Assembly (NCBI RefSeq): GCF_009931435.1
Contig: NZ_CP043414.1
Direction: 5' to 3' (one strand)
Source of the DNA: Escherichia coli
GTDB lineage: Bacteria; Pseudomonadota; Gammaproteobacteria; Enterobacterales; Enterobacteriaceae
Length of the DNA stretch: 64,000 nt
Shown here: positions 297 through 20,911 of the stretch, one piece after another
How the letters are laid out: the number at the start of each line of letters is the position of its first letter
Numbering within the stretch: position 1 is the stretch's first letter
Position numbers and translations under genes: made by a program
Notes under the pieces: generated by a model
What the model was told of the DNA's origin: nothing
What the model saw: only the letters and a program-made list of their open reading frames with translations
Databases searched by the model: none

Positions 297-1153
297 CATT
301 TCACCTCGCGGGAGAGTAGCTTCCACCAGGCGTCGATGGTCGGATTTTTCGCCAGCATGACAAAATCGATATCGCCATGCACTTTGCGCCAGCGCGCCGC
401 CAGCGCCATCATGCGCACCGAATCCAGACCGTAATCAATTAGGTTGTCGTCATCGAAGGGTTCATCGGACTCGTCCAGCAACGGCAGGATCACCTCACGC
501 AGCGCCGATTTGCTGGCGGGGATAGGTGCTGGCAGCAATTCTTCGGTCATCACCACCCGGCCAGAACGTCCGGCCACATATTTCAGCGACATCAAATGCT
601 CGTCACGGCTGAAATCGGCCAGCGCATCTGCCACCATAAACGGTTTAATATCGCGCATAAATGCGTCGGTTGCGGTGGTCATACAGCCAATGTGGGCGTA
701 CACCCCGGTTATAATCAGTTGGTTACGTCCACTCTCTTTGAGCATTTGTTCCAGCGGAGAACGATGAAACGCGCTGTAGCGCCACTTCACCAACACCGTG
801 TCGTCGGCATCTGGCGTCAGGCGATCCACCACCTTTTGCTGTTCCGGTGAACGGGTCAGGCCCGGTCCCCACATATCATTCAACAGCGCCCGATCTTCAT
901 CGCTCTGCTCTTTCGGCTGGGCGGTGTAATAAACCGGAATATTGTGCTGTTTGCAGTAGTCGCGTAGTGCCGCAATATTCGCGATCACCTGCTCCATCAT
1001 CGGGCAGTTCTCGCCCCAGAAGCTAACAAAATAGTCCTGCATATCATGGATTAACAACGCGGCACGTTGCGGCTCAAAGGCCCAGTTGACTTTATTGTGC
1101 GGAATATCGTGAGACTCCGGCAGTGCGTAAGCCTGTAATTTTGGAATAGCCAT
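296..1153 (-). CDS. entB: Isochorismatase / aryl carrier protein EntB
   Basis: 285-aa ORF MAIPKLQAYALPESHDIPHNKVNW... recognised as EntB; position between entE and entA. Confidence 0.95.
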   Translation of the reverse strand: MAIPKLQAYALPESHDIPHNKVNWAFEPQRAALLIHDMQDYFVSFWGENCPMMEQVIANIAALRDYCKQHNIPVYYTAQPKEQSDEDRALLNDMWGPGLTRSPEQQKVVDRLTPDADDTVLVKWRYSAFHRSPLEQMLKESGRNQLIITGVYAHIGCMTTATDAFMRDIKPFMVADALADFSRDEHLMSLKYVAGRSGRVVMTEELLPAPIPASKSALREVILPLLDESDEPFDDDNLIDYGLDSVRMMALAARWRKVHGDIDFVMLAKNPTIDAWWKLLSREVK

Positions 1154-1166
1154 CGTGTTCTCTCCT

Positions 1167-2777: not shown

Positions 2778-2786
2778 CCTCGCTCC

Positions 2787-3962
<1,176 letters not shown>

Positions 3963-3976
3963 ATCATCCTCCACAA

Positions 3977-4010
3977 AATGATAAAGGCTTTAATAATGAT
4001 TATCATTTAT
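3977..4010. promoter_or_regulatory. Fur box in the divergent entCEBA / fepB promoter region
   Basis: Sequence aatgataaaggctttaataatgattatcatttat contains a near-consensus Fur site (ATAATGATTATCATT); a second weaker match (acaatgaaaatgagaagcattaac) lies at about 4100-4126. Confidence 0.6.
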
Positions 4011-4150
4011 ATTTTCGGTCGCTAACCTAAAAGCAAACGAGCACTATGTCAACTCTTGAGGTAACGCAATCTGCAAGTCGGGGTTGCATCTGCTTGTGGT
4101 TACAATGAAAATGAGAAGCATTAACTTCATTAATAACAGGAAGCTGATTT

Positions 4151-5107
4151 GTGAGACTCGCCCCGCTCTACCGCAACGCCCTTCTTTTAACCGGACTTTT
4201 GCTTTCAGGAATATCTGCAGTTCAGGCTGCCGACTGGCCGCGTCAGATTACTGACAGTCGTGGTACTCATACCCTGGAAAGCCAGCCGCAGCGTATTGTT
4301 TCCACCAGCGTCACCCTGACCGGCTCACTGCTGGCGATTGATGCACCAGTGATCGCTAGCGGCGCGACCACGCCGAATAACCGCGTAGCGGATGACCAGG
4401 GTTTTTTACGCCAGTGGAGCAAGGTGGCGAAAGAACGCAAACTGCAACGGCTCTATATCGGTGAACCAAGTGCCGAAGCGGTGGCCGCGCAAATGCCGGA
4501 TCTGATTTTAATTAGCGCAACCGGCGGTGATTCGGCGCTGGCGCTATACGATCAGCTTTCCACTATCGCACCAACGTTAATCATCAATTACGACGATAAA
4601 AGCTGGCAGTCGCTGTTAACGCAACTTGGCGAAATTACCGGGCATGAGAAACAAGCGGCAGAGCGGATCGCGCAGTTTGATAAGCAACTGACGGCGGCGA
4701 AAGAGCAAATCAAATTACCGCCGCAGCCGGTCACTGCCATTGTCTATACCGCCGCCGCGCACAGTGCCAATCTCTGGACAGCTGAATCAGCACAAGGGCA
4801 GATGCTGGAACAACTCGGCTTTACGCTGGCCAGGTTGCCCGCAGGCTTAAACGCCAGCCAAAGCCAGGGCAAACGCCATGACATCATTCAGCTTGGTGGG
4901 GAAAATCTGGCGGCAGGGTTAAATGGCGAGTCGCTATTCCTGTTCGCCGGTGATCAGAAAGACGCCGATGCGATTTATGCCAATCCACTGCTCGCGCACC
5001 TGCCTGCAGTACAAAACAAGCAGGTTTATGCGCTGGGAACCGAGACGTTCCGACTGGATTACTACAGCGCCATGCAAGTGCTGGATCGGCTTAAGGCGCT
5101 GTTCTAA
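4151..5107 (+). CDS. fepB: Ferric enterobactin periplasmic binding protein FepB
   Basis: 318-aa [23 protein letters not shown]... with GTG start and signal peptide; recognised as FepB. Confidence 0.92.
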
Positions 5108-5110
5108 GCA

Positions 5111-6361
5111 TTAACTGTCAGACGCTGTCACCTGCGGCGGCGTCTGGCGAAAACGACGCAACTCCACCAGTACCAGCAACAACAACACGCCGATAATCAA
5201 CAAACCAAAACCACTCGCGCTTGCGGAGGCCACCGGCGTCATCATCGCTCCCAGACCGCCCAACAGCGCTGCGCCTATAGCATCGCCCGTCACGTTTTGT
5301 GCCGTCCACAAACCGTTAATCCGCCCTAACATCGCTTCCGGGGTTTGCGTTTGCAGCATTGTGTATTGCAGCAACGAACTAACCGCGCTCAACCAGCCGA
5401 ACAGCGCCAGACAAACCACGCCTAAAATCCACATCGGCATCAGGCCAAACAAACCAATGGCGAGGAACGATCCCAGAGTGGAGAGCAGCATCAATAACCC
5501 TGGTCGCGCACTATGTGCCAGCTTCCCGCTGGTTAACGCGCCAATAGCTGCACCGAGCGGGATCGCCGCATAGAGAAAACCAATCTGTGCCGCCGACATC
5601 TGCCAGTTGTCAGCCAGCGCCGGATACAGTACCCGTACCGCGCTCGCCATCGTCAATAATCCCCCCAGCAGTGCAATCCCTCCCACCAGCGGGCTGGCGA
5701 GCAGAAAACGAAATCCTGCCAGTAATGATTTCAACGGATGCTCACGCGGTTGCGGTGGCGGAGGTAGCGCCGGAAGGCTTAACAACGGTAGCAAGGTAAT
5801 AAACGTGCCCGCCGCCGCCAGCCCGTAGTTCCAGGCTACGCCGCCAGTCGCCAGCAGTAAGCCGCCAATCATGGGCGAAATTACCGATCCCAGCCGCACG
5901 GTCAACATGGTGATTGCCCCGGCCTGCATTAAATTTTCACGCCCAACTAATGCCGGAGTCGCCGCCAGAAGCGCCGTAACGCCAAGTGACGCGAAAAAGC
6001 CATCCCATAATCCGAGTAAATAGATTGCCAGCAAAGACGGCTCCGGCAGCAACGCGTTCAGGCACAGACCAATGAAGCCAATGCCACAGGTGCCGCGCGC
6101 CAGCAAAATCACTTTTTTGCGCTCATAGCGATCCGCCAGCACACCGCCGACCATCAAGCCGACAAACATCGCCCCGCCGGTCAGCGTCACCGAAAGCCCC
6201 ACCTGCCAGGTAGAATGCGTCATCATCTGGATCTGCACTGGCACCGCGACGCCGAGCAAACCCAGAGAAACAATAGAGATAAAACGAGCGAGGAATACTG
6301 CGCGAAACGCCGGGTGCGTTTTCAACAGGCTGAGGTTAAGCAGCCAGGATTGTTTATTCAT
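5111..6361 (-). CDS. entS: Enterobactin exporter EntS (MFS transporter)
   Basis: 416-aa hydrophobic multi-pass [30 protein letters not shown]...; locus context. Confidence 0.92.
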
Positions 6362-6434
6362 TACAATGCCTTGCCATCAAATATTTTAAATACCTATTCT
6401 TAGGCTGCACATGCTAACATATCCAAATAAGATC

Positions 6435-6459
6435 GATAACGATAATTAATTTCATTATC
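6435..6459. promoter_or_regulatory. Fur box in the divergent entS / fepDGC promoter region
   Basis: gataacgataattaatttcattatc resembles the Fur consensus GATAATGATAATCATTATC. Confidence 0.6.
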
Positions 6460-6471
6460 ATGGAAGTTCGT

Positions 6472-7476
6472 ATGTCTGGTTCTGTTGCCGTGACACGCGC
6501 CATTGCCGTGCCCGGATTGCTGTTATTACTGATTATCGCGACGGCATTAAGCCTGCTCATTGGGGCAAAATCACTCCCCGCTTCCGTAGTACTGGAGGCC
6601 CTCTCCGGCACCTGCCAGAGCGCCGACTGCACCATCGTGCTCGACGCGCGACTGCCGCGCACCCTTGCCGGTTTACTGGCAGGCGGCGCGCTTGGGCTTG
6701 CCGGGGCGTTAATGCAAACCCTCACCCGAAACCCACTTGCCGACCCCGGCTTGCTTGGCGTGAACGCCGGGGCCAGCTTTGCCATTGTGCTGGGCGCGGC
6801 GCTGTTTGGTTACTCATCCGCGCAGGAACAACTGGCGATGGCCTTCGCCGGGGCGCTGGTGGCCTCGTTGATTGTTGCCTTTACTGGCAGCCAGGGCGGT
6901 GGGCAGTTAAGTCCGGTGCGTTTAACTCTGGCGGGCGTGGCGCTGGCGGCAGTGCTGGAAGGGCTGACCAGCGGCATCGCCCTGCTTAATCCCGACGTCT
7001 ACGATCAACTGCGTTTCTGGCAAGCCGGTTCGCTGGATATTCGTAATTTACACACCTTAAAAGTAGTGCTGATCCCGGTGCTGATCGCTGGAGCAACTGC
7101 ACTATTACTGAGCCGCGCGCTGAACAGTTTAAGCCTCGGCAGTGACACCGCGACGGCGCTGGGCAGTCGCGTAGCACGCACGCAGTTGATTGGCCTACTG
7201 GCGATTACCGTGCTTTGTGGTAGTGCGACGGCGGTAGTTGGCCCGATTGCCTTTATTGGCCTGATGATGCCGCATATGGCGCGCTGGCTGGTAGGTGCCG
7301 ATCATCGCTGGTCGCTGCCCGTCACGCTGCTCGCCACACCTGCCCTGCTGCTGTTTGCCGATATTATCGGGCGGGTGATTGTTCCCGGCGAACTGCGCGT
7401 TTCTGTAGTCAGTGCCTTTATTGGCGCACCAGTGCTGATCTTCCTTGTACGACGTAAAACGCGAGGTGGCGCATGA
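6472..7476 (+). CDS. fepD: Ferric enterobactin ABC transporter permease FepD
   Basis: ORF containing MSGSVAVTRAIAVPGLLLLLIIATALS...; start placed at the internal ATG at 6472; stop overlaps the fepG start. Confidence 0.9.
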   Translation: MSGSVAVTRAIAVPGLLLLLIIATALSLLIGAKSLPASVVLEALSGTCQSADCTIVLDARLPRTLAGLLAGGALGLAGALMQTLTRNPLADPGLLGVNAGASFAIVLGAALFGYSSAQEQLAMAFAGALVASLIVAFTGSQGGGQLSPVRLTLAGVALAAVLEGLTSGIALLNPDVYDQLRFWQAGSLDIRNLHTLKVVLIPVLIAGATALLLSRALNSLSLGSDTATALGSRVARTQLIGLLAITVLCGSATAVVGPIAFIGLMMPHMARWLVGADHRWSLPVTLLATPALLLFADIIGRVIVPGELRVSVVSAFIGAPVLIFLVRRKTRGGA

Positions 7477-8465
7477 TTTACGTCTCTCGTCGATTAATTA
7501 TCACCTGTCTGCTGTTGCTAATAGCTTGTGTGATGGCAAGCGTGTGGGGATTACGCAGCGGTGCCGTCACGCTGGAAACCTCTCAGGTATTTGCCGCGCT
7601 GATGGGTGACGCACCGCGCAGTATGACAATGGTGGTCACCGAATGGCGTTTACCGCGGGTACTAATGGCACTGTTGATTGGTGCGGCACTGGGCGTCAGC
7701 GGCGCGATTTTTCAGTCGTTGATGCGTAACCCACTCGGCAGCCCTGACGTAATGGGCTTTAACACCGGAGCGTGGAGCGGCGTGCTGGTAGCGATGGTGC
7801 TGTTTGGTCAGGACCTGACGGCTATCGCACTGGCAGCAATGGCGGGCGGCATTGTCACTTCGCTGTTAGTCTGGCTGCTTGCCTGGCGTAACGGTATCGA
7901 CACTTTTCGGTTGATTATTATCGGCATCGGTGTTCGCGCCATGCTGGTGGCCTTTAATACCTGGCTGTTGCTGAAAGCGTCATTAGAAACGGCGCTAACA
8001 GCGGGTTTGTGGAATGCCGGATCGCTCAATGGCCTGACGTGGGCAAAAACCTCGCCCTCCGCGCCCATCATTATATTGATGCTAATTGCCGCCGCCTTAC
8101 TGGTAAGGCGGATGCGCTTGCTGGAGATGGGTGATGACACCGCGTGTGCGTTAGGCGTCAGCGTCGAACGTTCACGGCTGTTAATGATGCTGGTCGCCGT
8201 AGTACTTACCGCAGCTGCCACTGCCCTGGCGGGGCCGATTTCCTTTATTGCTTTAGTCGCGCCACACATTGCCCGCCGTATCAGCGGCACCGCTCGCTGG
8301 GGTCTAACCCAGGCAGCGCTGTGCGGTGCGCTGTTACTGCTGGCAGCCGATCTCTGTGCTCAACAACTGTTTATGCCGTATCAACTTCCGGTTGGCGTTG
8401 TTACCGTCAGCCTCGGCGGTATTTACCTTATCGTCTTGTTAATTCAGGAGTCTCGCAAAAAATGA
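7473..8465 (+). CDS. fepG: Ferric enterobactin ABC transporter permease FepG
   Basis: 330-aa ORF; ATGA overlap with the fepD stop and the fepC start. Confidence 0.92.
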   Translation: MIYVSRRLIITCLLLLIACVMASVWGLRSGAVTLETSQVFAALMGDAPRSMTMVVTEWRLPRVLMALLIGAALGVSGAIFQSLMRNPLGSPDVMGFNTGAWSGVLVAMVLFGQDLTAIALAAMAGGIVTSLLVWLLAWRNGIDTFRLIIIGIGVRAMLVAFNTWLLLKASLETALTAGLWNAGSLNGLTWAKTSPSAPIIILMLIAAALLVRRMRLLEMGDDTACALGVSVERSRLLMMLVAVVLTAAATALAGPISFIALVAPHIARRISGTARWGLTQAALCGALLLLAADLCAQQLFMPYQLPVGVVTVSLGGIYLIVLLIQESRKK

Positions 8466-9277
8466 CCGAATCAGTAGCCCGTTTGCGCGGCGAACAGTTA
8501 ACCCTCGGATATGGCAAATATACCGTTGCGGAAAATCTGACTGTAGAAATTCCTGATGGTCACTTCACAGCGATTATCGGGCCAAATGGCTGCGGTAAAT
8601 CCACGTTACTGCGTACCTTAAGCCGCCTGATGACGCCTGCTCACGGGCATGTCTGGCTGGATGGCGAGCACATTCAACATTACGCCAGTAAAGAGGTCGC
8701 ACGCCGGATTGGTTTACTGGCGCAAAACGCCACCACGCCGGGAGATATCACCGTGCAGGAGTTAGTAGCGCGCGGGCGTTACCCGCATCAACCGCTGTTT
8801 ACCCGCTGGCGTAAAGAAGATGAAGAAGCGGTAACGAAAGCGATGCAGGCCACAGGAATAACTCATCTGGCAAATCAAAGCGTTGATACCCTCTCCGGTG
8901 GGCAACGTCAGCGAGCGTGGATCGCGATGGTGCTGGCCCAGGAAACGGCAATTATGCTACTCGACGAACCCACCACCTGGCTGGATATCAGTCATCAGAT
9001 TGATTTGCTGGAATTGTTAAGCGAACTGAACCGCGAGAAAGGCTATACCCTGGCGGCGGTACTGCACGATCTTAATCAGGCCTGTCGGTACGCTAGCCAT
9101 TTGATTGCATTACGTGAAGGGAAAATTGTCGCTCAAGGAGCACCAAAAGAAATAGTCACTGCTGAACTGATTGAGCGTATTTATGGTTTGCGTTGCATGA
9201 TCATTGACGATCCGGTAGCCGGAACTCCGCTTGTGGTGCCGCTCGGACGAACGGCACCTTCAACCGCGAAGATTTAA
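8462..9277 (+). CDS. fepC: Ferric enterobactin ABC transporter ATPase FepC
   Basis: Internal ATG at 8462 gives MTESVARLRGEQLTLGYGKYTV... with Walker A GPNGCGKST and signature LSGGQRQR; the longer 8144 ORF start was rejected because it lies inside fepG. Confidence 0.92.
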   Translation: MTESVARLRGEQLTLGYGKYTVAENLTVEIPDGHFTAIIGPNGCGKSTLLRTLSRLMTPAHGHVWLDGEHIQHYASKEVARRIGLLAQNATTPGDITVQELVARGRYPHQPLFTRWRKEDEEAVTKAMQATGITHLANQSVDTLSGGQRQRAWIAMVLAQETAIMLLDEPTTWLDISHQIDLLELLSELNREKGYTLAAVLHDLNQACRYASHLIALREGKIVAQGAPKEIVTAELIERIYGLRCMIIDDPVAGTPLVVPLGRTAPSTAKI

Positions 9278-10407
9278 ACTAAGTGGTCTGCCATCATGGC
9301 ATCCTGTTTTCTGGATGCCATGGCATGGCGCAACAGCACGCTACCACAAGCCACCATACCGCCGATCAACGCAGAAAGGATCACGATAATCGCCTTACCC
9401 GGACCATCTTTTTTTACCGGTAATGACGGACGCAACTGATATTTAAACGGCGTAAAATTCACATCGTTGACATTTGTTTTTGTTAATTGCTCGACTAGAT
9501 ACTGACGATTACGTAATTCACCATTCAGCTCCGCAACGTCAGTGACCGCTTTTTCAATTTCCAGTTTACGTTCAATACCGTCTGCGCCGAGAGAAATAGA
9601 AAAGTCGGGGTCATCTTTAACTGCCTGACCATTGCTATAAACGGGCTTTTTAATTCCTGCCGCGTTGGCAATGTCGAGTGAATAATTGAGGCGCTGAATG
9701 TTTGCATCAAGTTGGTTTTTCGTTTTAATGCGATCCTGAGCCAGTTTTTCTTTTTCAAACTGGGTTTTGATTTCCAGTTTATTACGGACGTTTTCTAGCG
9801 ACTCTTTCACCACCAACGCAGAGATATAATCGATATACCCGCTCAAAACGGTCTGCGCCTCTTCACTGGTTGGCGCGGTGAAACTTAGCGTCCAGGAGGC
9901 ATACAGTGACGGTTCATCTTTTTTCTTACTGGCATTGTCATCAACCGCTTTCATTTTTTCGCTCAATGCGACGATAGCGCGATGCAAATCCAGTTCGTCG
10001 ATTTTCGCCTCTTTTAATTGGTCCATCACATAAGGTGATGAGCGCAGGTACTCTTCCAGTAAGCTAACAGACTGAAACTTCTTGATAAACAGGTTAAATG
10101 CTTCTGTACGATCAATTTTGATATCCAGATCCAGCACACGAAGCTTAGTGAATGTTTTCTCAAGCGCCTGCCACTGAACAGGTTCTGGAGGCGTGACAAC
10201 CGCCGCGCTGGTCCATTTTTGCGGCAGGATGAAAGAGATCAGTAAACCTGCGCAGGCAAACGCAAAAACGACCGCCATGACCGTTTTTTTGGCCCGCCAT
10301 AAAACTTCAATTAGATTAAGTAAATCAATTTCATTATTACTGGGCGACGCCAGAGGATACTCGGGAAAATGAGCGTCACTTCCCTGTTTAATATTCAGTG
10401 ATGACAT
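9274..10407 (-). CDS. fepE: Polysaccharide co-polymerase family protein FepE
   Basis: ORF containing MSSLNIKQGSDAHFPEYPLASPSNNEIDLLNLIEVLW...; start at the ATG at 10407-10405; convergent 4-nt overlap with the fepC stop. Confidence 0.88.
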   Translation of the reverse strand: MSSLNIKQGSDAHFPEYPLASPSNNEIDLLNLIEVLWRAKKTVMAVVFAFACAGLLISFILPQKWTSAAVVTPPEPVQWQALEKTFTKLRVLDLDIKIDRTEAFNLFIKKFQSVSLLEEYLRSSPYVMDQLKEAKIDELDLHRAIVALSEKMKAVDDNASKKKDEPSLYASWTLSFTAPTSEEAQTVLSGYIDYISALVVKESLENVRNKLEIKTQFEKEKLAQDRIKTKNQLDANIQRLNYSLDIANAAGIKKPVYSNGQAVKDDPDFSISLGADGIERKLEIEKAVTDVAELNGELRNRQYLVEQLTKTNVNDVNFTPFKYQLRPSLPVKKDGPGKAIIVILSALIGGMVACGSVLLRHAMASRKQDAMMADHLV

Positions 10408-10571
10408 GCGGTATAACCTGAAATGGGTCCAATAAGAGTAAATCTCCACGGCCCCCACTTTACCAGTTGGTGAGATTTATCCGAAGCTGAAGTTTGTAAA
10501 TTCCTCCCACTGAATGCAACATTCACTCTATTTCAGAGAAATATCCGTTAAATTGATAAATTAAATAAATA

Positions 10572-10608
10572 ATAAACCCATAATCATTTATTGTAATTAT
10601 GGGTTTAT
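10572..10608 (-). terminator. Perfect 13-bp inverted repeat hairpin downstream of entF (candidate intrinsic terminator)
   Basis: ataaacccataat (10572-10584) and attatgggtttat (10596-10608) are exact reverse complements with an 11-nt loop, in an AT-rich spacer immediately after the entF stop. Confidence 0.5.
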
Positions 10609-10621
10609 AGATAATATAAAT

Positions 10622-13600
10622 TTACTTATTTAGCGCCGCACGAATAATTGGCCCTATTTTTTCAAACGCCATCGGCGAGATAATATCCACATGCGCGCAA
10701 TCATGACGATAGATATCCAGCTCCGCAATCCATGGTGCCCAGGCCCGTTCGGGAGTCATCCCCTCCTGAAGCGTGCGTTCGGCAACAAACAGCGTCGCTT
10801 TTCCATCAAACGGAACACTATGGGCAGTGGTCAACAAGCGCACTGCATCAGCGTAGTTGCCTTCAATGGTGGTAAACAGCTCCGTTGAAGTATTTCCCTG
10901 CTGTGCCGCCAGGAAAGCTTCACGTTCGCGGTTAATCTCCGCCAACACTTCCGGGTCCAGACCATTAGCTTCTTTTTCCTGCCAGTTCTGCGTTTCTGGC
11001 GGCCAGGTATCCAGCAAGCCAAGAAATGCCACCTGTTCGCCACGGGCACGCAGCCGTGCCGCAATCCCCTGCGCCAGCGTACCGCCCAGCGAATACCCCA
11101 GCAGGTAATAAGGGCCGTGCGGTTGTTGTTCAAGTAACGTTGCCAGATGCGCTTCGCAGACTTCATCCAGGTTTGCCGCCGTCTGCATGGGGCCATGAGG
11201 GCGCGGAGACTGGATGCCAATAATCGACCATTGAGGATCGAGATAACGCGAGAGCACGCTAAACTGCCAGGCAAAACCAGATGCTGGATGGAAACAAAAC
11301 AGCGTCGGGCCATTACCTTCACGCAACGGCAGGATGGTTTCAAATCCCATGCGCTGGGTGCTGTCTTCTTCACCATCAATAACCGTTGCCAGTTTGGCGA
11401 CGGTTGACGCGACCATCACCTGCCCCGGCGTCACCTGACGGGCAAACTGTCGACTGAGTTGTGCTGCCAGTTTCATTGCCAGTAGCGAATGACCGCCAAG
11501 CGCGAAGAAATCAGCGTCAGCATCCTGCACGTCACAACCCAGTAATGACGAGAACGCCGCGGCGATAATCGTTTCACTGCCCGCTTTCGGCGCACGCCCC
11601 GACGCTTGTGCCTTCAGTTCCGGCAACGGTAAGGCTTTGCGATCCAGCTTACCGTTGGCGCTAAGTGGTAACTGCGGCAGTTGCAGCAGAACCACGGGCA
11701 CCATATGCGGTGGCAATTTTTCGCGAAGCTGCGCCTGCAATGCGCTGGTATCCAGCGGCAGGCCCGATTGCGACACCAGATAGCCCACCAATTGACGCGC
11801 ATCCCCTCCGGTGGCTGCCGCCTGATTAATCACACAAGCGTGGGTAACTGCTTGCTCGACATCCGGCAGCGCCTGCATCACACGATCGATTTCGCCCAGT
11901 TCAATCCGCTGACCACGAATTTTTAGCTGATCATCACTACGCCCGAGATACTCCGCCGCGCCGTTATCCAGCCAGCGGGCAACATCTCCGGTACGGTACA
12001 TGCGTTCACCGGGCGCGAAAGGATCGGCAATAAAGCGGCTGGCGGTCAGATCGGGTCGTCCAAGATACCCCTGCGCCAGTTGAATACCGGTGAGATAGAG
12101 ATCGCCTGCCACACCCGGCGGCACCGGATGCATCATCGCATCGAGAATGCGCAGGCCCGTGTTCCACACCGGGTAGCCAATCGGCACACTGCTGCCGCGT
12201 ACCGCTGCAAGTTCAGCACCAAAGGCTGGATACCAGCTCACATCCACCGCCGCTTCCGTCGGGCCATAAAGATTATGTAACGGCGCGCCGGTTAACTGCT
12301 GCCATTCGCGACATAAATCGGCTGGTAAGGCTTCTCCGCTACAGAAAACCTGTTTCAACGTCGCGCAACTCTGGCGAGCGGTTTCCGACGTCAGCGAAGC
12401 AACAAACGCCGCCAGCATCGACGGCACAAAATGCGTGGTCGTTACGCCATATTCGGCAAAGAATTGTTGCATAGCGAGCGGATCGCGGTGCGCTTCCGGT
12501 TCAGCCATCACCAGTTTCGCCCCAGCAATAAACGGCCAGAAAAACTCCCACACCGAGACATCAAAACTGCACGGCGTTTTTTGGGCAACAACATCTTCGC
12601 CTGTGAGCGGGTAGTGGTTTTGCATCCATAACAGGCGGTTAACGATAGCCGTCTGCCCGACCATCACCCCTTTCGGCCTGCCGGTGGAACCGGAGGTAAA
12701 GATGATATAAGCCGTGTGGTGCGGTTGTGAAAGTTGCAGCGGCGCACTGCCCTGCGGTGTAAGCGGGGCGTTATAGCAAAGACTGGTTAAATTGGGGATA
12801 TCGCTAAAGCGCGGCAGTTGATCATCGGTGGTGATTAACAGTGACGGACGCGCATCTTCCAGCATCATTTTCAGGCGATCGTCCGGATAGCCCGTATCCA
12901 GCGGTAGCCAGGCCGCACCTGCTTCAACTATCGCATGTAGCGCCATAGTCAAAAAGACCGAGCGCGGTAGTGCCACCGCTACGCTGTCGCCAGGTTTAAC
13001 GCCGCGCTCACGCAGCAGATTCGCCAGCGCCACCACCTGCTCGCGCATTTCCCGATAGCTAAACTGGTAACGCGCATCTGCCAGCGCCGGAGCATCCGGT
13101 GTTTTTGCCGCTTGTTCTGCCACCAGCGCGCTAAGCGTAGTTTCTGGAATCTCAACCTGAGTGGCGTTGATCTGCGCCAGCTGTGCATACTCTTCTGGCA
13201 GCAGAATATCGACATCGCCGCACAACCGCGCCGGATCCGCGGCAAACTGCGCCGTCAGCATTTTCAGCCGTTCAGCATGCTTGATTAACGTTGGCTCATC
13301 GTAACGCTGTTTATTGGCGAGGATCTCAATACTCAAATCACCGTTTTCATCCGGGAAAAGGGCCAGTTCAAGGTCATTAACCGGACCGGTTGCCAGGGTA
13401 TGGGTTTGCGTCTGTACCCCCGGAATATCTAACTGATAATCAAATACTTTAATATTGAGCACCGGACCGAACAGCGGTTCCTCTCCCGCCGCGCGCCCGC
13501 TGTCACGGACAATTTGTTCGGCATCGTAACGTTGATGACGACGCATTTTTTTCAGTTGAGCGGCCAGTCGGGATGCCAGTTGCGGCAATGTTTCTTGTGC

Positions 13601-14503
13601 CTCAATGTGAATACCCAACGGCAACACGTTGAGCACAGGTCCGGTAGCCGTCAGCGCAGCTGAGCCCAGTCGACGCATAAAGATAAATCCGGCGGCATAG
13701 TCCATGTGGTTGCACAATCGCCCCAGCCACAAAGCCGCCAGCGCAAGGGCTATATCGGTACGTTGTACACCTGAAAGTTGCGTAGCCAACTGGCGGAATT
13801 CCCCGCCGTTAAATTCCAGTTTCAGACGCAAAATATCTGCCGAGGCGCTGCGCCCAGGTAAAGGGGCTGGAGAAAGTGACGCGGGCGGTGGTAGTTGACG
13901 ACGTTGCTCCGCCCAGAATGCCGCATCACGCTGCCAGGCTTCGCTTTCGCGATACTGCTGGTACTCTTCCACGACATCAGCGAAAGGCGTAAACGGCGAA
14001 GCCGGTGTTGGTTCGCCACGCATCCATGCACAGTAAATGTTGGCGATCTGGCGGGTAATGACCGGGAAACTGAAGCCATCGACCAGCAAATGGTGGTAAC
14101 GCTGATACCAGTACCAGCGGTTATCTGCCACCTGTATCAGTTGATGAAAAACCAGAGGTTTACCGCTATCGACGCGCAGATCTTGTTGCAAATCCGCCTG
14201 CATTAATGCCTGCGCAATACCGTGCGGATCAATGTTAGTTCGCAGGTCGATAATTTCTGGCAGTTCGAACGTCAGCGCATCATCGACCCATTGCCAGACT
14301 TCGCCGTTATCTTCCGTAAAACGCATCCGCAGCGTATCTGCTTGCGCTAATCCGGCAACCACCGCGCGAGCCAGTAATGGCGCATCAACATCTCCGGTTA
14401 ACTCAACGTAATGCGCCACGCTCCAGGCGGAGGGTAAATCCGACAGTTTTTCTGCCATCCAGATGCCGGGCTGTGCGGCAACTAAAGGTAAATGCTGGCT
14501 CAT
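10622..14503 (-). CDS. entF: Enterobactin synthase component F (NRPS: C-A-PCP-TE)
   Basis: 1293-aa product from the ATG at 14503-14501 (MSQHLPLVAAQPGIWMAEKL...); adenylation motifs (FTSGSTGRPKG), PCP (GGHSLLA) and thioesterase (GYSLGG); the ORF extension to 14641 was rejected. Confidence 0.95.
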   Translation of the reverse strand: MSQHLPLVAAQPGIWMAEKLSDLPSAWSVAHYVELTGDVDAPLLARAVVAGLAQADTLRMRFTEDNGEVWQWVDDALTFELPEIIDLRTNIDPHGIAQALMQADLQQDLRVDSGKPLVFHQLIQVADNRWYWYQRYHHLLVDGFSFPVITRQIANIYCAWMRGEPTPASPFTPFADVVEEYQQYRESEAWQRDAAFWAEQRRQLPPPASLSPAPLPGRSASADILRLKLEFNGGEFRQLATQLSGVQRTDIALALAALWLGRLCNHMDYAAGFIFMRRLGSAALTATGPVLNVLPLGIHIEAQETLPQLASRLAAQLKKMRRHQRYDAEQIVRDSGRAAGEEPLFGPVLNIKVFDYQLDIPGVQTQTHTLATGPVNDLELALFPDENGDLSIEILANKQRYDEPTLIKHAERLKMLTAQFAADPARLCGDVDILLPEEYAQLAQINATQVEIPETTLSALVAEQAAKTPDAPALADARYQFSYREMREQVVALANLLRERGVKPGDSVAVALPRSVFLTMALHAIVEAGAAWLPLDTGYPDDRLKMMLEDARPSLLITTDDQLPRFSDIPNLTSLCYNAPLTPQGSAPLQLSQPHHTAYIIFTSGSTGRPKGVMVGQTAIVNRLLWMQNHYPLTGEDVVAQKTPCSFDVSVWEFFWPFIAGAKLVMAEPEAHRDPLAMQQFFAEYGVTTTHFVPSMLAAFVASLTSETARQSCATLKQVFCSGEALPADLCREWQQLTGAPLHNLYGPTEAAVDVSWYPAFGAELAAVRGSSVPIGYPVWNTGLRILDAMMHPVPPGVAGDLYLTGIQLAQGYLGRPDLTASRFIADPFAPGERMYRTGDVARWLDNGAAEYLGRSDDQLKIRGQRIELGEIDRVMQALPDVEQAVTHACVINQAAATGGDARQLVGYLVSQSGLPLDTSALQAQLREKLPPHMVPVVLLQLPQLPLSANGKLDRKALPLPELKAQASGRAPKAGSETIIAAAFSSLLGCDVQDADADFFALGGHSLLAMKLAAQLSRQFARQVTPGQVMVASTVAKLATVIDGEEDSTQRMGFETILPLREGNGPTLFCFHPASGFAWQFSVLSRYLDPQWSIIGIQSPRPHGPMQTAANLDEVCEAHLATLLEQQPHGPYYLLGYSLGGTLAQGIAARLRARGEQVAFLGLLDTWPPETQNWQEKEANGLDPEVLAEINREREAFLAAQQGNTSTELFTTIEGNYADAVRLLTTAHSVPFDGKATLFVAERTLQEGMTPERAWAPWIAELDIYRHDCAHVDIISPMAFEKIGPIIRAALNK

Positions 14504-14718
14504 TGCGCCTCCTGCTGCTGGATGAAATTCGCCGGTGTCAGAGTACGCCAGTGGGCGTCCAGCCACTGCTGGCAGGACGCCTGTGACTGCGGCTGACACA
14601 CAACATCCCAGCCTGCCGGTAAGGCGCACTGTTGCGGCCACAGACTGAATTGCCCCTGCGCATTGCGTAAAATGTAAAACACGCCCTGCGGATCATCGAA
14701 GGGATTACTGAATGCCAT
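14500..14718 (-). CDS. ybdZ: MbtH-like protein YbdZ
   Basis: 72-aa MAFSNPFDDPQGVFYILRNAQGQFSLWP... from the ATG at 14718; the stop overlaps the entF start (ATGA). Confidence 0.9.
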   Translation of the reverse strand: MAFSNPFDDPQGVFYILRNAQGQFSLWPQQCALPAGWDVVCQPQSQASCQQWLDAHWRTLTPANFIQQQEAQ

Positions 14719-14720
14719 AT

Positions 14721-15923
14721 TCAACTCCTGTCATGGAAAAGTGGTTGCCAGAGGTCGATTAGCCCCTGCATCAAGCCACCGCGCCAACAAAGCGCATCAT
14801 GTCCGCCGTCAACCTGACGCCAGAAAATGGATTCTTTTAGGGGGGGTAATTGCGCATACAGCGCCTGATTGGCCCGCATAATCATCGGCTCGCGAAGACC
14901 CGCTTCCAGCACAATGCGCAGACCTTCGGCGCTAACTTCACCAGCTTTGAGCTGTTCAAGTAACATGCCCTCTTGCTGACCGCTCCGGTGCGGCCACCAG
15001 TACGATCCCGACTGGCTTAATACACAGCCAAAGCGTTCAGGCCAGTGCAGTCCGGCATACAGCGCGGAAAGCCCACCAAAACTCTGCCCGGCGACCACAG
15101 TACGATCGGCGCGATCGCTAAAGGGGGCGATAGTTTTCACCTGGGGTAATAACTCTTGCTGTACTGCCAGCCAGAAATCCGCATTACATGGCAGTTCGTG
15201 GGCACGTTGCGTGGTGTCGATAGCGTCGATCAACACGTACACGGCGGGAGGAAGTTGCTGACGATGGGTCAACGAAGTCAGCGCAGGCCAGACGGGCATA
15301 CTCTGCGCCCAAAATTCGCCATCAAGTAAAACTGCCAGCGGACGTTCTTCTGCTGTTGCATCGCCGGTGGTAAAAATCCATACACGGCGTGAATTTTTCA
15401 ACCGTTCACTTTTCCAGATAATTTCTTTGGCAGGCGTTTCTGGCGCTTGCGGACAATCCCATCCTGGTTGCAGGGGCGCTTGCGGCATTTCGAGTGCAGA
15501 AACAGCGTGCCCTCGCCCGCCTTTCCAGCTTTGTGGATTCAGCGGATCGGCTATCGCCAGGGGTAATAGTTTTCGCCAGCCTTCGCGCAATTCGAGGCGA
15601 TCAGGTGATGGAGCAGAAAAAATGTCATCACGTTCGGTAGGAATAAAACAGTAGCTGCCGCGCCAGTTGGCATTGAGTTGTGTCGTCCACTGCCAGACAT
15701 CGGTCCCTGCAATTCGCTGCATCGACTGGGGCTGGCTGTTCTGATGGTGATCGGTCACGCCAGTGATATAGACCCATACGCGCTTTATCGTCGAGTGGTC
15801 TTCAGAACCTTGTGGATCACGCCACCAGAAAGTGACCTGATACATTTCGTCATTCAGACGCTGACATTCCGGGCCATGTTTCGACTGCCACCAGCTCTCA
15901 CTTCCTACTTTTAACGCCGTCAC
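14721..15923 (-). CDS. fes: Enterochelin esterase Fes
   Basis: 400-aa ORF MTALKVGSESWWQSKHGPE... with serine hydrolase motif GQSFGG; directly upstream of ybdZ-entF. Confidence 0.92.
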   Translation of the reverse strand: MTALKVGSESWWQSKHGPECQRLNDEMYQVTFWWRDPQGSEDHSTIKRVWVYITGVTDHHQNSQPQSMQRIAGTDVWQWTTQLNANWRGSYCFIPTERDDIFSAPSPDRLELREGWRKLLPLAIADPLNPQSWKGGRGHAVSALEMPQAPLQPGWDCPQAPETPAKEIIWKSERLKNSRRVWIFTTGDATAEERPLAVLLDGEFWAQSMPVWPALTSLTHRQQLPPAVYVLIDAIDTTQRAHELPCNADFWLAVQQELLPQVKTIAPFSDRADRTVVAGQSFGGLSALYAGLHWPERFGCVLSQSGSYWWPHRSGQQEGMLLEQLKAGEVSAEGLRIVLEAGLREPMIMRANQALYAQLPPLKESIFWRQVDGGHDALCWRGGLMQGLIDLWQPLFHDRS

Positions 15924-15967
15924 ACCATAACCCCATGTTTACTGTGCAATTTTTCATTGATTGCAGA

Positions 15968-16004
15968 AATATATTGATAATATTATTGATAACTATTTGC
16001 ATTT
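15968..16004. promoter_or_regulatory. Fur box(es) in the divergent fes / fepA promoter region
   Basis: atattgataatattattgataactatttgc contains overlapping GATAAT hexamer repeats typical of Fur operators. Confidence 0.6.
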
Positions 16005-16165
16005 GCAATAGCGTAATGGCGCGCCGTGGGAAGCGCGGACATTAATTAACCAACTGCACTGCGTGTCTTTCAGGATCAAAGGTTTTCGCGGTAGCGGGAT
16101 ACGTCGTATTGATGACGACTACGCCCGACAGTTGCAATTCGTGGCAAAAATGCAGGAATAAAACA

Positions 16166-18406
16166 ATGAACAAGAAGATTCATTCCCTGGCCTTGTTGGT
16201 CAATCTGGGGATTTATGGGGTAGCGCAGGCACAAGAGCCAACCGATACTCCTGTTTCACATGACGATACTATTGTCGTTACCGCCGCCGAGCAGAACTTG
16301 CAGGCGCCAGGCGTTTCGACCATCACCGCAGATGAAATCCGCAAAAACCCGGTTGCCCGCGATGTATCGGAGATCATTCGTACCATGCCTGGCGTTAACC
16401 TGACAGGTAACTCCACTAGTGGTCAGCGTGGTAATAACCGCCAGATTGATATTCGCGGCATGGGTCCGGAAAACACGCTGATTTTGATTGACGGTAAGCC
16501 TGTCAGCAGCCGTAACTCGGTGCGTCAGGGCTGGCGTGGCGAGCGTGATACCCGTGGTGATACCTCCTGGGTGCCGCCTGAAATGATTGAACGTATTGAA
16601 GTTCTGCGTGGTCCGGCAGCTGCGCGTTATGGCAACGGCGCGGCGGGCGGCGTGGTTAACATCATTACCAAAAAAGGCAGCGGCGAGTGGCACGGCTCCT
16701 GGGATGCTTATTTCAATGCGCCAGAGCATAAAGAGGAAGGTGCCACCAAACGCACCAATTTCAGCTTGACCGGTCCGCTGGGCGACCAATTCAGCTTCCG
16801 TTTATATGGCAACCTCGACAAAACTCAGGCTGATGCGTGGGATATTAACCAGGGCCATCAGTCAGCGCGTGCCGGAACGTATGCCACGACGTTACCAGCC
16901 GGGCGCGAAGGGGTGATCAACAAAGATATCAATGGCGTGGTGCGTTGGGACTTCGCCCCTATGCAATCACTCGAACTTGAAGCGGGCTACAGCCGCCAGG
17001 GTAACCTGTATGCAGGTGATACCCAAAACACCAACTCCGATTCCTATACGCGCTCGAAATATGGCGATGAAACCAACCGCCTGTATCGCCAGAACTACTC
17101 GCTGACCTGGAACGGTGGCTGGGATAACGGCGTGACCACCAGCAATTGGGTGCAGTACGAACACACCCGTAACTCGCGTATACCGGAAGGTTTGGCGGGC
17201 GGCACCGAAGGGAAATTTAACGAAAAAGCGACACAAGATTTCGTCGATATCGATCTTGATGACGTGATGTTGCACAGCGAAGTTAACCTGCCGATTGATT
17301 TCCTCGTTAACCAGACGCTGACGCTGGGGACTGAGTGGAATCAGCAGCGGATGAAGGACTTAAGTTCCAACACCCAGGCGCTGACCGGAACGAATACCGG
17401 CGGTGCTATTGATGGTGTGAGTGCCACCGACCGTAGCCCATATTCAAAGGCAGAAATTTTCTCGCTATTTGCCGAAAACAACATGGAGCTGACTGACAGC
17501 ACCATCGTAACGCCGGGGCTGCGTTTCGATCATCACAGCATTGTCGGCAATAACTGGAGTCCGGCGCTGAATATATCGCAAGGTTTAGGCGATGACTTCA
17601 CGCTGAAAATGGGCATCGCCCGTGCTTATAAAGCGCCGAGCCTGTACCAGACTAACCCGAACTACATTCTCTACAGTAAAGGTCAGGGCTGCTATGCCAG
17701 CGCGGGCGGCTGCTATTTGCAGGGTAACGACGACCTGAAAGCGGAAACCAGTATCAACAAAGAGATTGGGCTGGAGTTCAAACGCGACGGCTGGCTGGCT
17801 GGCGTCACCTGGTTCCGTAACGATTATCGCAATAAGATTGAAGCGGGCTATGTGGCTGTAGGGCAAAACGCAGTCGGCACCGATCTCTATCAGTGGGATA
17901 ACGTGCCGAAAGCGGTGGTTGAAGGTCTGGAAGGATCGTTAAACGTACCGGTTAGCGAAACGGTGATGTGGACCAACAACATCACTTATATGCTGAAGAG
18001 TGAAAACAAAACTACGGGCGACCGTTTATCGATCATCCCGGAATATACGTTGAACTCAACGCTGAGCTGGCAGGCACGGGAAGATTTGTCGATGCAAACG
18101 ACCTTCACCTGGTACGGCAAGCAGCAGCCGAAGAAGTACAACTATAAAGGTCAGCCAGCGGTTGGCCCGGAAACCAAAGAAATCAGTCCGTACAGCATTG
18201 TGGGTCTGAGCGCGACCTGGGATGTGACGAAGAATGTCAGTCTGACCGGCGGCGTGGACAACCTGTTCGACAAACGTTTGTGGCGTGCGGGTAATGCCCA
18301 GACCACGGGCGATCTGGCAGGAGCCAACTATATCGCCGGTGCCGGGGCGTATACCTATAACGAGCCGGGACGTACATGGTATATGAGCATTAATACGCAC
18401 TTCTGA
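16166..18406 (+). CDS. fepA: TonB-dependent ferric enterobactin outer membrane receptor FepA
   Basis: 746-aa product from the ATG at 16166 (MNKKIHSLALLVNLGIYGVAQAQEP...), TonB box DTIVVTA, C-terminal ...TWYMSINTHF. Confidence 0.95.
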   Translation: MNKKIHSLALLVNLGIYGVAQAQEPTDTPVSHDDTIVVTAAEQNLQAPGVSTITADEIRKNPVARDVSEIIRTMPGVNLTGNSTSGQRGNNRQIDIRGMGPENTLILIDGKPVSSRNSVRQGWRGERDTRGDTSWVPPEMIERIEVLRGPAAARYGNGAAGGVVNIITKKGSGEWHGSWDAYFNAPEHKEEGATKRTNFSLTGPLGDQFSFRLYGNLDKTQADAWDINQGHQSARAGTYATTLPAGREGVINKDINGVVRWDFAPMQSLELEAGYSRQGNLYAGDTQNTNSDSYTRSKYGDETNRLYRQNYSLTWNGGWDNGVTTSNWVQYEHTRNSRIPEGLAGGTEGKFNEKATQDFVDIDLDDVMLHSEVNLPIDFLVNQTLTLGTEWNQQRMKDLSSNTQALTGTNTGGAIDGVSATDRSPYSKAEIFSLFAENNMELTDSTIVTPGLRFDHHSIVGNNWSPALNISQGLGDDFTLKMGIARAYKAPSLYQTNPNYILYSKGQGCYASAGGCYLQGNDDLKAETSINKEIGLEFKRDGWLAGVTWFRNDYRNKIEAGYVAVGQNAVGTDLYQWDNVPKAVVEGLEGSLNVPVSETVMWTNNITYMLKSENKTTGDRLSIIPEYTLNSTLSWQAREDLSMQTTFTWYGKQQPKKYNYKGQPAVGPETKEISPYSIVGLSATWDVTKNVSLTGGVDNLFDKRLWRAGNAQTTGDLAGANYIAGAGAYTYNEPGRTWYMSINTHF

Positions 18407-18443
18407 TGCTAACGTCAGATTGTTGACAAAGTGCGCGTCGTTC

Positions 18444-18545
18444 ATGCCGGATGCGGCGTGAACGCCTTATCCGGCCTACAAAAATTTTGCCAATTCAATA
18501 TATTGCAGGATAGTGTAGGCCTGATAAGCGTAGCGCATCAGGCAG
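18444..18545. repeat. BIME: two inversely oriented REP palindromic units between fepA and entD
   Basis: gccggatgcggcgtgaacgccttatccggcctaca followed by taggcctgataagcgtagcgcatcaggc; REP consensus recognised by eye. Confidence 0.7.
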
Positions 18546-18580
18546 TTTTGCGTTTGTCATCAGTCTCTAATATGGTCGAC

Positions 18581-19201
18581 ATGAAAACTACGCATACCTC
18601 CCTCCCCTTTGCCGGACATACGCTGCATTTTGTTGAGTTCGATCCGGTGAGTTTTCGCGAGCAGGATTTACTCTGGCTGCCACACTACGCACAACTGCAA
18701 CACGCTGGACGTAAACGTAAAACAGAGCATTTAGCCGGACGGATCGCTGCTGTTTACGCCTTGCGGGAATATGGCTATAAATGTGTGCCCGCAATCGGCG
18801 AGCTACGCCAACCTGTGTGGCCTGCGGAGGTATACGGCAGTATTAGCCACTGCGGGACTACGGCATTAGCCGTGGTATCTCGTCAACCGATTGGCATTGA
18901 TATCGAAGAGATTTTCTCTGTACAAACCGCAAGAGAATTGACAGACAACATTATTACACCAGCAGAACACGAGCGACTCGCAGAATGCGGTTTAACCTTT
19001 TCTCTGGCGCTGACACTGGCATTTTCCGCCAAAGAGAGCGCATTTAAGGCAAGCAAGATACAGGCCGCTCAAGGTTTTCTGGATTATCAGATAATTAGCT
19101 GGAATAAACAGCAGATCATCATTCGACTAGAGGATGAGCAGTTTGCTGTGCACTGGCAGATAAAAGAAAAAATAGTCATAACGCTGTGCCAACACGATTA
19201 A
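18581..19201 (+). CDS. entD: Enterobactin synthase 4'-phosphopantetheinyl transferase EntD
   Basis: 206-aa product from the ATG at 18581 (MKTTHTSLPFAGHTLHFVEFDP...). Confidence 0.9.
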   Translation: MKTTHTSLPFAGHTLHFVEFDPVSFREQDLLWLPHYAQLQHAGRKRKTEHLAGRIAAVYALREYGYKCVPAIGELRQPVWPAEVYGSISHCGTTALAVVSRQPIGIDIEEIFSVQTARELTDNIITPAEHERLAECGLTFSLALTLAFSAKESAFKASKIQAAQGFLDYQIISWNKQQIIIRLEDEQFAVHWQIKEKIVITLCQHD

Positions 19202-19322
19202 TTGACAACATCTGGTACGATTCGCCCGCAGCCATCACTGACCACGGGCGAAAGTGTAAAGCAGGTGCCTTACCATCCTGACCTGACAACCGGATATGCG
19301 GGGATTGCTCCCCGCACAACGG

Positions 19323-19475
19323 CTACTTCTTCGGTTCGTAAGCGAGAACAGCCCTGAACTCAATATTACGTTCCTTTACGGTGAACTCACACAGCGAGTC
19401 GCCGACCAGAAGCGTAAATCCCAGCACTGTCAAACACAGCACTATGACTGCCACAAGGGCATATTTCGTCAGCAT
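19323..19475 (-). CDS. hokE: Hok family toxin, copy 1 (entD-proximal)
   Basis: [50 protein letters not shown] (50 aa); a 1-nt deletion upstream breaks the in-frame mok-like extension seen in copies 2 and 3. Confidence 0.8.
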
Positions 19476-19554
19476 GTTTATATTGCCTCCATGCGAAGAA
19501 GGGACTACCATCCAAATTGTCTGGTTTGGAGTGGCGGCCCCAGGGTTGATAGAA

Positions 19555-19618
19555 ATATCTCCTGGGGCTTCATCTTTCCAGACCTCAGAGTTAACCGGAA
19601 AGCTTCAGGCACCCGCCG
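19555..19618 (+). ncRNA. sokE: Putative Sok antisense RNA, copy 1 (position inferred from plasmid R1 hok/sok architecture)
   Basis: Antisense to the mok start and ribosome-binding region; boundaries are approximate and not verified. Confidence 0.25.
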
Positions 19619-19817
19619 TTATCTTACCCTTCCTTAGCAAAATGGCTGTTTATTTATACAGTAAATCCTGTTCCGGACTTTTCATTGGTATTATCGCCCA
19701 TGCCAGTTAAACGAAATCGCCCGCAGCCATTGCTGACCGCGGGCGAAAATGTAAAGCAGGAGCCTTACCATCCTGACCTGACAACCGGATATGCGGGGAT
19801 TACTCCCCGCACAACGG

Positions 19818-19970
19818 CTACTTCTTCGGTTCGTAAGCGAGAACAGCCCTGAACTCAATATTACGTTCCTTTACGGTAAACTCACACAGCGAGTCGCCGA
19901 CCAGAAGTGTAAATCCCAGCACCGTTAAACACAGCACTATGACTGCCACAAGGGCATATTTCGTCAGCAT
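19818..19970 (-). CDS. hokE: Hok family toxin, copy 2, with in-frame mok-like leader ORF extending to 20069
   Basis: Same 50-aa Hok sequence (R at residue 41); the 83-aa in-frame ORF starts [33 protein letters not shown]. Confidence 0.8.
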
Positions 19971-20050
19971 GTTTATATTGCCTCCATGCGAAGAAGGGAC
20001 TACCATCCGAGTTGTTGAGGTTCGGAGTGGCAGCCCCAGGGTTGATAGAA

Positions 20051-20114
20051 ATATCTCCTGGGGCTTCATCTTTCCAGACCTCAGAGTAAACCTGAAACAG
20101 GAAAGCTTCAGGCA
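20051..20114 (+). ncRNA. sokE: Putative Sok antisense RNA, copy 2 (inferred)
   Basis: Same reasoning as copy 1; approximate. Confidence 0.25.
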
Positions 20115-20320
20115 CCCGCCGTTATCTTACCCTTCCTTAGCGAAATAGCTGTTTATTTATACAGTGAGTCCTGTTTCGGACTTCTGTTGGCAAAACTGAT
20201 CATTGCCCTTAAAACGACATCGCCCGCAGCCATCACTGACCGCGGGCGAAAGTGTAAAACAGGTGCCTTACCACCCTGACCTGACAACCGGATATGCGGG
20301 AATTACTCCCCGCACAACGG

Positions 20321-20473
20321 CTACTTCTTCGGTTCGTAAGCGAGAACAGCCTTAAACTCAATATTACGTTCCTTCACCGTAAACTCACACAGCGAGTCTC
20401 CGACCAGAAGCGTAAATCCCAGCACCGTCAAACACAGCACTATGACTGCCACAAGGGCATATTTCGTCAGCAT
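20321..20473 (-). CDS. hokE: Hok family toxin, copy 3 (ybdK-proximal), with in-frame mok-like leader ORF extending to 20572
   Basis: [50 protein letters not shown]; this copy matches my recollection of K-12 HokE (K at residue 41). Confidence 0.85.
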
Positions 20474-20553
20474 GTTTATATTGCCTCCATGCGAAGAAGG
20501 GACTACCATCCAAATTGTTCGGGTTTGGAGTGGCAGCCCCAGGGTTGATAGAA

Positions 20554-20617
20554 ATATCTCCTGGGGCTTCATCTTTCCAGACCTCAGAGTAAACCTGAAA
20601 CCGGAAAGCTTCAGGCA
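20554..20617 (+). ncRNA. sokE: Putative Sok antisense RNA, copy 3 (inferred)
   Basis: Same reasoning as copy 1; approximate. Confidence 0.25.
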
Positions 20618-20911
20618 CCCGCAGTCATCTTACCCTTCCTTAGCAAAATAGCTGTTTATTTATACAGTTGGTCTTATTTCGGACTTCTCACTACGCATTA
20701 GATCAACCGAAACTAAGCCAGTTTTTCCTTCGCCCCTCAATCATCAAAATTCTCCGCCGCCAGCCAGCTCTGCCATAACCTGGCACATTGCAAAGTAGCC
20801 AAACTTCTTCAGTCACAATCAGTTCACCATCACCAAAAAAAAACATTCCAGAACTTCCGCATCTCGCCCAGTCGCTCCCACTTCTATACTCAAATGAAAA
20901 CGCCAACATAA

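Follow-up and report, generated by a model that had tools for sequence, protein, structure and literature searches.

The question raised by this locus is whether an enterobactin gene cluster of E. coli has the expected iron-regulated architecture, with Fur operators in its divergent promoter regions, and whether these operators are those known from K-12. The DNA analysed is a stretch of 64,000 nucleotides, referred to as the window. Four clusters of Fur sites were found in it, and these are very probably (about 95%) the classical Fur operators known for the enterobactin genes of E. coli. Both the observation and its interpretation hold good; this is textbook biology, already known. The sequence points to the standard iron- and Fur-controlled wiring of the enterobactin system in this strain, which adds little beyond annotation, and the analysis gives the exact coordinates of the four operators (Table 1).

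The window contains the ent/fep/fes cluster of E. coli, as seen from the annotation of an identical match and of K-12 MG1655 and from the list of open reading frames (ORFs). Of 5426 complete E. coli genomes, 5414 have a match at fes/fepA to a 701-bp query around the sites there. The orientation of the cluster is opposite to that in K-12; over 19.3 kb, the window shows collinearity with both K-12 and strain Z0117EC0005, and the divergent junctions are entC/fepB, entS/fepD, and fes/fepA. The gene identities and the order given in the preliminary description are thus borne out by the annotation of the matching genomes and by the ORFs. All cluster genes wholly within the window are uninterrupted ORFs of the annotated lengths, whereas entA is truncated at the first position of the window and entH is not included in it. 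It should be mentioned that the Fur boxes had been taken to show that the locus is intact. This does not follow from the boxes: intactness, with the exception of the cut entA, comes separately from the uninterrupted ORFs.

Comparison of the window with K-12 revealed 1058 differences at 19,312 positions, or 5.5%. The divergence per gene ranges from 3.4 to 8.6%, and that of the spacer between fepE and entF, which is non-regulatory, is 11.7%. For E. coli core genes, the 5.5% divergence of the ent locus (1-19312) from K-12 is high; the most divergent genes are fepG (8.6%) and entF (7.3%). The identity of the ent locus to that of strain Z0117EC0005 is 98.7%.

Several features in the surroundings of the cluster are recorded here. 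In the fepA-entD spacer, the plus strand of 18481-18522 matches the ES036 (CssrF) sRNA family with 46.7 bits (Rfam). Beside entD, the hokE/sok toxin-antitoxin segment is present in three tandem copies, approximately 500 bp apart, at 19301-20690 (BLAST and Rfam), and Rfam places three sok antitoxin RNAs on the minus strand at 19467-19614, 19962-20117, and 20465-20620. The nearest annotated strain has one hokE and one frameshifted fragment. Tandem Repeats Finder returned nothing for the hok/sok triplication, the period of which is close to the 500-bp limit of the tool. The interval between entD and hokE is free of IS186/IS421 here, unlike in K-12 and strain Z0117EC0005. Collinearity with the closest annotated strain stops at 45155, beside prophage-remnant genes of that strain.

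Table 1. Genes, operators, candidate promoters, and best matrix positions of the enterobactin locus (window coordinates)
Feature	Position	Strand	Score (bits)	Basis
entA (cut by window start)	1-295	-		
entB	296-1153	-		
entE	1167-2777	-		
entC (start codon at 3961)	2787-3961	-		
fepB	4151-5107	+		
entS	5111-6361	-		
fepD (ATG at 6472)	6472-7476	+		
fepG	7473-8465	+		
fepC	8462-9277	+		
fepE	9274-10407	-		
entF	10622-14503	-		
ybdZ	14500-14718	-		
fes, enterochelin esterase, 400 aa; first gene of the leftward fes-ybdZ-entF unit	14721-15923	-		ORF, annotation
fepA, ferric enterobactin outer-membrane receptor (ATG at 16166); entD next	16166-18406	+		ORF, annotation
entD	18581-19201	+		
entC Fur operator	3968-4016	.		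K-12 footprint equivalent, identical
fepB Fur operator	4101-4128	.		alignment with K-12, matrix sites at 4104 and 4110
Empty site (TTA) of the 186-bp repeat	4120-4122	.		186-column alignment gap relative to K-12
entS/fepD Fur operator (core 6432-6462)	6422-6490	.		K-12 primary plus secondary footprint equivalent
fes/fepA Fur operator	15968-16015	.		K-12 footprint equivalent; 48/48 identical to K-12
Candidate fepA sigma-70 promoter	15957-15986	+		consensus scan, 9/12 matches
Candidate fes promoter	15980-16009	-		inference from reading of sequence
Matrix rank 1 in 64 kb, entC	site start 3989		25.4	
Matrix rank 2 in 64 kb, entS/fepD	site start 6438		20.6	
Matrix rank 3 in 64 kb, fes/fepA	site start 15985		16.6	
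Matrix rank 4 in 64 kb, entC	site start 3995		15.6	
Matrix rank 5 in 64 kb, entS/fepD	site start 6432		13.8	
Matrix rank 6 in 64 kb, fepB	site start 4104		13.7	

A Fur matrix was built from 15 experimentally supported K-12 sites (fhuA, yahA, fur, gpmA, tonB, nohA, fadD, yoeA, cir, exbB, ryhB, sodA, fhuF, fecA, and fecI), none of which is from the enterobactin locus. The coordinates of these footprinted or gel-shifted sites were taken from Tables 3 and 4 of Chen et al. 2007 (PMC2189734). Segments were centred on the palindrome, and the resulting symmetric 19-bp matrix has the consensus AATGATAATCATTATCATT and an information content of 23 bits. With this matrix, the six best positions of the 64 kb are all within the three divergent regions. 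The matrix scan named as a check in the preliminary description was thus run with a matrix free of ent sites, and its top positions are in the regions that had been pointed out.

Every top site is flanked by weaker ones in a 6-bp register, so that clusters are formed; this architecture of overlapping dimers was described by Chen et al. 2007 (PMC2189734). In the entC cluster, a site starting at 3977 (10.2 bits) accompanies the two in the table, and 3992 is also a site start. The entS/fepD cluster is completed by a site starting at 6444 (7.3 bits), and the fes/fepA cluster by those starting at 15973 (9.4 bits) and 15979 (6.2 bits). All sites are located between divergent genes, at distances of 10-170 bp from the start codons. 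In addition, consensus promoter scans found -10-like hexamers inside the fes/fepA, entC, and entS/fepD clusters. Two overlapping weak matches to the matrix, with 9.8 and 8.4 bits, are also observed at the very start of the fepE gene, on the side facing entF (10317-10341).

The K-12 DNase I footprints listed in Table 3 of Chen et al. 2007 (PMC2189734) are, in NC_000913.2 coordinates, 611868-611915 for fes/fepA, 621394-621462 for entS/fepD (primary plus secondary), 624054-624102 for entC, and 623939-623969 for fepB (31 bases). Conversion to NC_000913.3 was made by adding 777. In the window, the first three correspond to the whole operators of Table 1 and the fepB footprint corresponds to 4101-4123, its eight further bases being without counterpart. 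The four footprint-equivalent segments show zero differences from K-12, as against 5.5% over the locus; nowhere in the intergenic regions is conservation higher than in the operators. The centres of the matrix peaks, 15994, 6447, and 3998, fall exactly on the strongest-site coordinates in Table 4 of the same work, namely, 611889, 621437, and 624072, and this agreement validates the coordinate mapping.

This means that the comparison with footprinted K-12 sites, which had also been proposed, gives identity in all four segments except for the distal 8 bp of the fepB footprint. Fur sites had been described in all three divergent regions, and matrix peaks are indeed found there, in sequences that are the published K-12 footprint segments. 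Identity of the operators to footprinted sequences supports the expected iron-regulated architecture at the sequence level. The count of three operators needs correction, however: entC and fepB each have their own cluster, approximately 115 bp apart, and therefore four clusters are located in the three regions.

The fepB operator is where the window departs from K-12. Of the 31 bases footprinted in K-12, the first 23 recur here at 4101-4123, and the other eight are replaced by a different sequence. The two matrix sites at 4104 and 4110 have scores of 13.7 and 10.7 bits, as compared with 13.7 and 17.5 bits in K-12. A TACAAT -10 candidate at 4101-4106 abuts the operator. The K-12 fepB leader contains a 186-bp palindromic multi-copy repeat that is absent from the window, and the leader is accordingly about 186 nt shorter here. 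In K-12, it is the beginning of this element (TTGAT...) that completes the second overlapping Fur site. As a result of the absence of the element, the distal 8 bp of the K-12 footprint are replaced in the window and the overlapping site falls from 17.5 to 10.7 bits. The element has imperfect terminal inverted repeats and folds into a single long hairpin of -91 kcal/mol; the median number of places with a copy is six per E. coli genome. A full-length element is present in 2721 of the 5426 genomes (50%), a count in which its location in the fepB leader is not confirmed genome by genome, and an empty junction like that of the window is present in 2495 (46%). A literature search for a description of the repeat in the K-12 fepB leader found nothing relevant.

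From these differences, a somewhat weaker distal end is predicted for the fepB operator of the window strain. An alternative reading goes further: three operators would work as in K-12, but the fepB operator would be functionally weaker or differently wired, with looser repression or different translation. The drop in score of the second overlapping site, the replacement of 8 of the 31 footprinted bases, and the absence of the hairpin of the K-12 insert all point in this direction. On the other hand, no change is seen in the 13.7-bit site or in the part of the footprint nearest the -10 element. With 46% of E. coli genomes carrying it, the insert-free form is to be regarded as normal and viable. 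Furthermore, Fur regulation of the fep operon (there fepABCD) has been published for nine other E. coli strains, in nine out of nine, unsorted by insert status (PMC10164565). A functional change at fepB thus seems rather unlikely.

The same applies to a broader proposal, namely, that the strongest predicted fepB Fur site of K-12 owes half of its sequence to the end of a 186-bp palindromic mobile repeat, and that the two roughly equal halves of E. coli may therefore differ in Fur affinity at fepB and in the length and structure of the leader. This is doubtful as it stands. If true, it would be a natural, repeat-driven polymorphism in the repression or translation of the periplasmic enterobactin-binding protein. 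What can be said of the sequences is that the forms with and without the repeat in the fepB leader have different distal ends of the fepB operator, and that each accounts for approximately half of E. coli genomes.

The matches might also be a by-product of AT-rich promoter DNA, their conservation being due to promoter elements for RNA polymerase and not to a Fur operator. The intergenic regions have a G+C content of 37.5%, as compared with 52.7% for the window, and promoter-like hexamers overlap the sites. Moreover, the surroundings of appY, which have no known Fur role, reach 13.6 bits: weak matches of 10.7-13.6 bits are clustered in the AT-rich flanks of this gene at 43736-44933. These matches (43.7-44.9 kb) were rejected as further Fur sites and are ascribed to compositional background, since they are AT-rich and do not exceed 13.6 bits. 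It follows that a score of about 13 bits alone is not diagnostic, and the 13.7-bit site of fepB, when considered by itself, does not rise above the AT-rich background (13.6 and 13.5 bits in the appY flanks).

The higher scores are hardly explained in this manner. In first-order Markov nulls, the best chance score per 64 kb has a mean of 12.4 bits and a 95th percentile of 17.4 bits. The best fes/fepA score, 16.6 bits, is lower than this percentile and is thus significant only given its position. With a null of intergenic composition, the chance of the best score per region is approximately 5e-3 for fes/fepA and 1.5e-4 for entS/fepD, and a score equal to the best of entC was found nowhere in 5 Mb of simulated sequence. 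Scores of 16.6-25.4 bits are therefore unlikely under such a composition (at most 5e-3 per region); the sequences match the Fur matrix far above chance. The arrays are phased by 6 bp, as expected for Fur, and the sequences are identical to segments for which Fur protection against DNase I is reported (PMC2189734, Table 3). In addition, the two functions, promoter and operator, coincide in part here, and one does not rule out the other. An origin of the matches in base composition is thus highly improbable, and they are best regarded as Fur operators.

The classical 19-mer GATAATGATAATCATTATC was scored at every position of the window by Hamming distance. Only four positions in the 64 kb have four mismatches or fewer, namely, 6441 (three mismatches), 3992, 4107, and 6435, as against 0.1 expected in a first-order Markov null, and all of them belong to entC/fepB or entS/fepD. 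At six mismatches or better, the window has 27 positions, as against 6.3 expected. The individual sites match at 13 to 16 of the 19 bases, and none is a perfect box. The match is 15/19 for entC (at 3992) and 16/19 for entS/fepD (at 6441). The sites had been called near-consensus, which is generous for fes/fepA (13/19), a site that is prominent by the matrix only. With six mismatches and 27 positions equally good, the 19-mer was rejected as a sufficient test for fes/fepA, and the matrix was used.

The core of the fes/fepA operator is GATAAT-ATTATT-GATAAC at 15976-15993, with the hexamers at 15976-15981, 15982-15987, and 15988-15993. These had been described as overlapping GATAAT repeats. The hexamers are in fact adjacent, and it is the 19-bp sites that overlap, in the 6-bp register. 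The span of 15968-16004 that had been assigned to the site begins exactly at the start of the K-12 footprint, but the footprint extends to 16015.

Candidate promoters for both genes overlap this operator. The fepA candidate consists of the -35 element TTGATT (15957-15962), an 18-nt spacer, and the -10 element TATTAT (15981-15986), the last of which is within the Fur cluster. This assignment is tentative, because the -35 element is not conserved across genera. On the minus strand, the fes candidate consists of the -35 element TTGCAA (16009-16004), an 18-nt spacer, and the -10 element TAATAT (15985-15980). The latter overlaps the candidate fepA -10 element on the opposite strand, and the fes candidate as a whole lies within the block conserved across species, which is described below. 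The start points of fepA and fes are stated to be 19 bp apart, with promoters overlapping almost completely (PMC4469952, citing Pettis et al. 1988); the position of the fes candidate is consistent with this distance.

The operator itself is strongly conserved. Within E. coli, 4951 of the 5426 genomes (91%) have an identical copy of the 48-bp fes/fepA operator, and 438 more have a match of 95-99%. A 48-mer of the fepA leader (16090-16137) was intended as a conservation control, and only 16 of the 5426 genomes were matched by megablast. Four lineage-specific substitutions block the seeding of megablast in this segment, which is therefore an unfair control, and the table of divergence from K-12 was used instead. 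The substitutions lie within 22 bp of the fepA leader (16101-16122), beside the invariant operator.

Across species, the pattern GATAATN6GATAACNATTTGCA was searched in one genome per bacterial species, and 80 loci were found. In 70 of them, all from Enterobacteriaceae, fes or fepA, and mostly both, adjoin the match: the start of fes is approximately 53 bp away on one side and that of fepA 100-333 bp away on the other. The genera include Citrobacter, Enterobacter, Kluyvera, Lelliottia, Raoultella, Salmonella, Leclercia, and Kosakonia, and other Escherichia species are likewise represented. The remaining 10 loci were rejected as operators, being chance matches in unrelated taxa.

When 68 other Enterobacteriaceae species were anchored on the match, the continuous run of at least 90% identity to the window was 15972-16015. 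This block is essentially the fes/fepA DNase I footprint. The search pattern fixes 19 operator positions, and the set of species is thus biased toward those that keep the operator. In the columns left free by the pattern, however, the identity of the 68 species to the window amounts to 95% within the footprint, as against 49% beyond it. Selection bias cannot explain the sharp edges of the block or the conservation of these unconstrained columns. At 16004-16015, it may be promoter elements, and not contacts with Fur, that are conserved. Just past the footprint, a G+C-rich stretch of the fepA leader at 16017-16035 (GGCGCGCCGTGGGAAGCGC) is 50-90% conserved per column across the 68 species and could form a short hairpin.

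That the sites are mere relics of a regulon rewired in this lineage, for example by loss of fur or by another regulator, is hardly credible: the operators have no differences from K-12 on a 5.5% divergent background and are conserved deeply across genera, and both facts argue for continuing selection. Nothing in favour of such a rewiring was found; the fur gene itself is outside the window.

For the Fur operators, a mechanism can be inferred from the sequence identity together with the published work on K-12. When iron is plentiful, Fe2+-loaded Fur dimers would occupy arrays of overlapping 19-bp sites phased by 6 bp. At fes/fepA, a single array (15973-16003) would cover the overlapping back-to-back -10 regions. 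Both candidate -10 elements are inside this array, so that it would block transcription in both directions. At entS/fepD, a single array just upstream of the fepD start codon would serve both genes. The fepD ATG is 10-40 bp downstream of this array, and the cluster was located between the promoter and the start codon by Chen et al. 2007 (PMC2189734). For entC and fepB, each gene would be controlled by its own array. When iron is scarce, Fur would leave the arrays, and the six transcription units, entCEBA(H), fepB, entS, fepDGC, fes-ybdZ-entF, and fepA-entD, would be expressed together.

The operators can be compared with the systems characterized in K-12. With respect to the fepA-fes promoter-operator region (Pettis et al. 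1988; Hunt et al. 1994), the 48-bp footprint segment and its distance to fes are identical, and the centre of the strongest matrix site is the same (15994 in the window, 611889 in K-12). The operator is without differences, whereas the fepA leader of the window is substituted at 16101, 16108, 16120, and 16122. The fepDGC-entS (ybdA) region (Christoffersen et al. 2001; Lavrrar et al. 2002) shows no detected differences: the 110-bp intergenic region is fully identical, as is the total of 230 bp including the flanks, and the cluster is just upstream of the fepD start codon in both. In the fepB-entC region (Brickman et al. 1990), the entC operator is identical, and so are the first 23 footprinted bases of fepB and the TACAAT -10 candidate. 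The intergenic region is 374 bp in K-12 and 189 bp in the window, however, and the repeat and the last eight footprinted bases belong to K-12 only. Finally, the sites of the window share with the generic Fur box, the 19-bp GATAATGATAATCATTATC in its hexamer, 6-1-6, and 7-1-7 readings, the inverted-repeat core. As in the model of Chen et al. 2007, they are also arranged in 6-bp-phased arrays in the promoter regions of iron-uptake genes. They probably overlap or directly follow the promoters, and they are imperfect, with 13 to 16 of the 19 bases matched.
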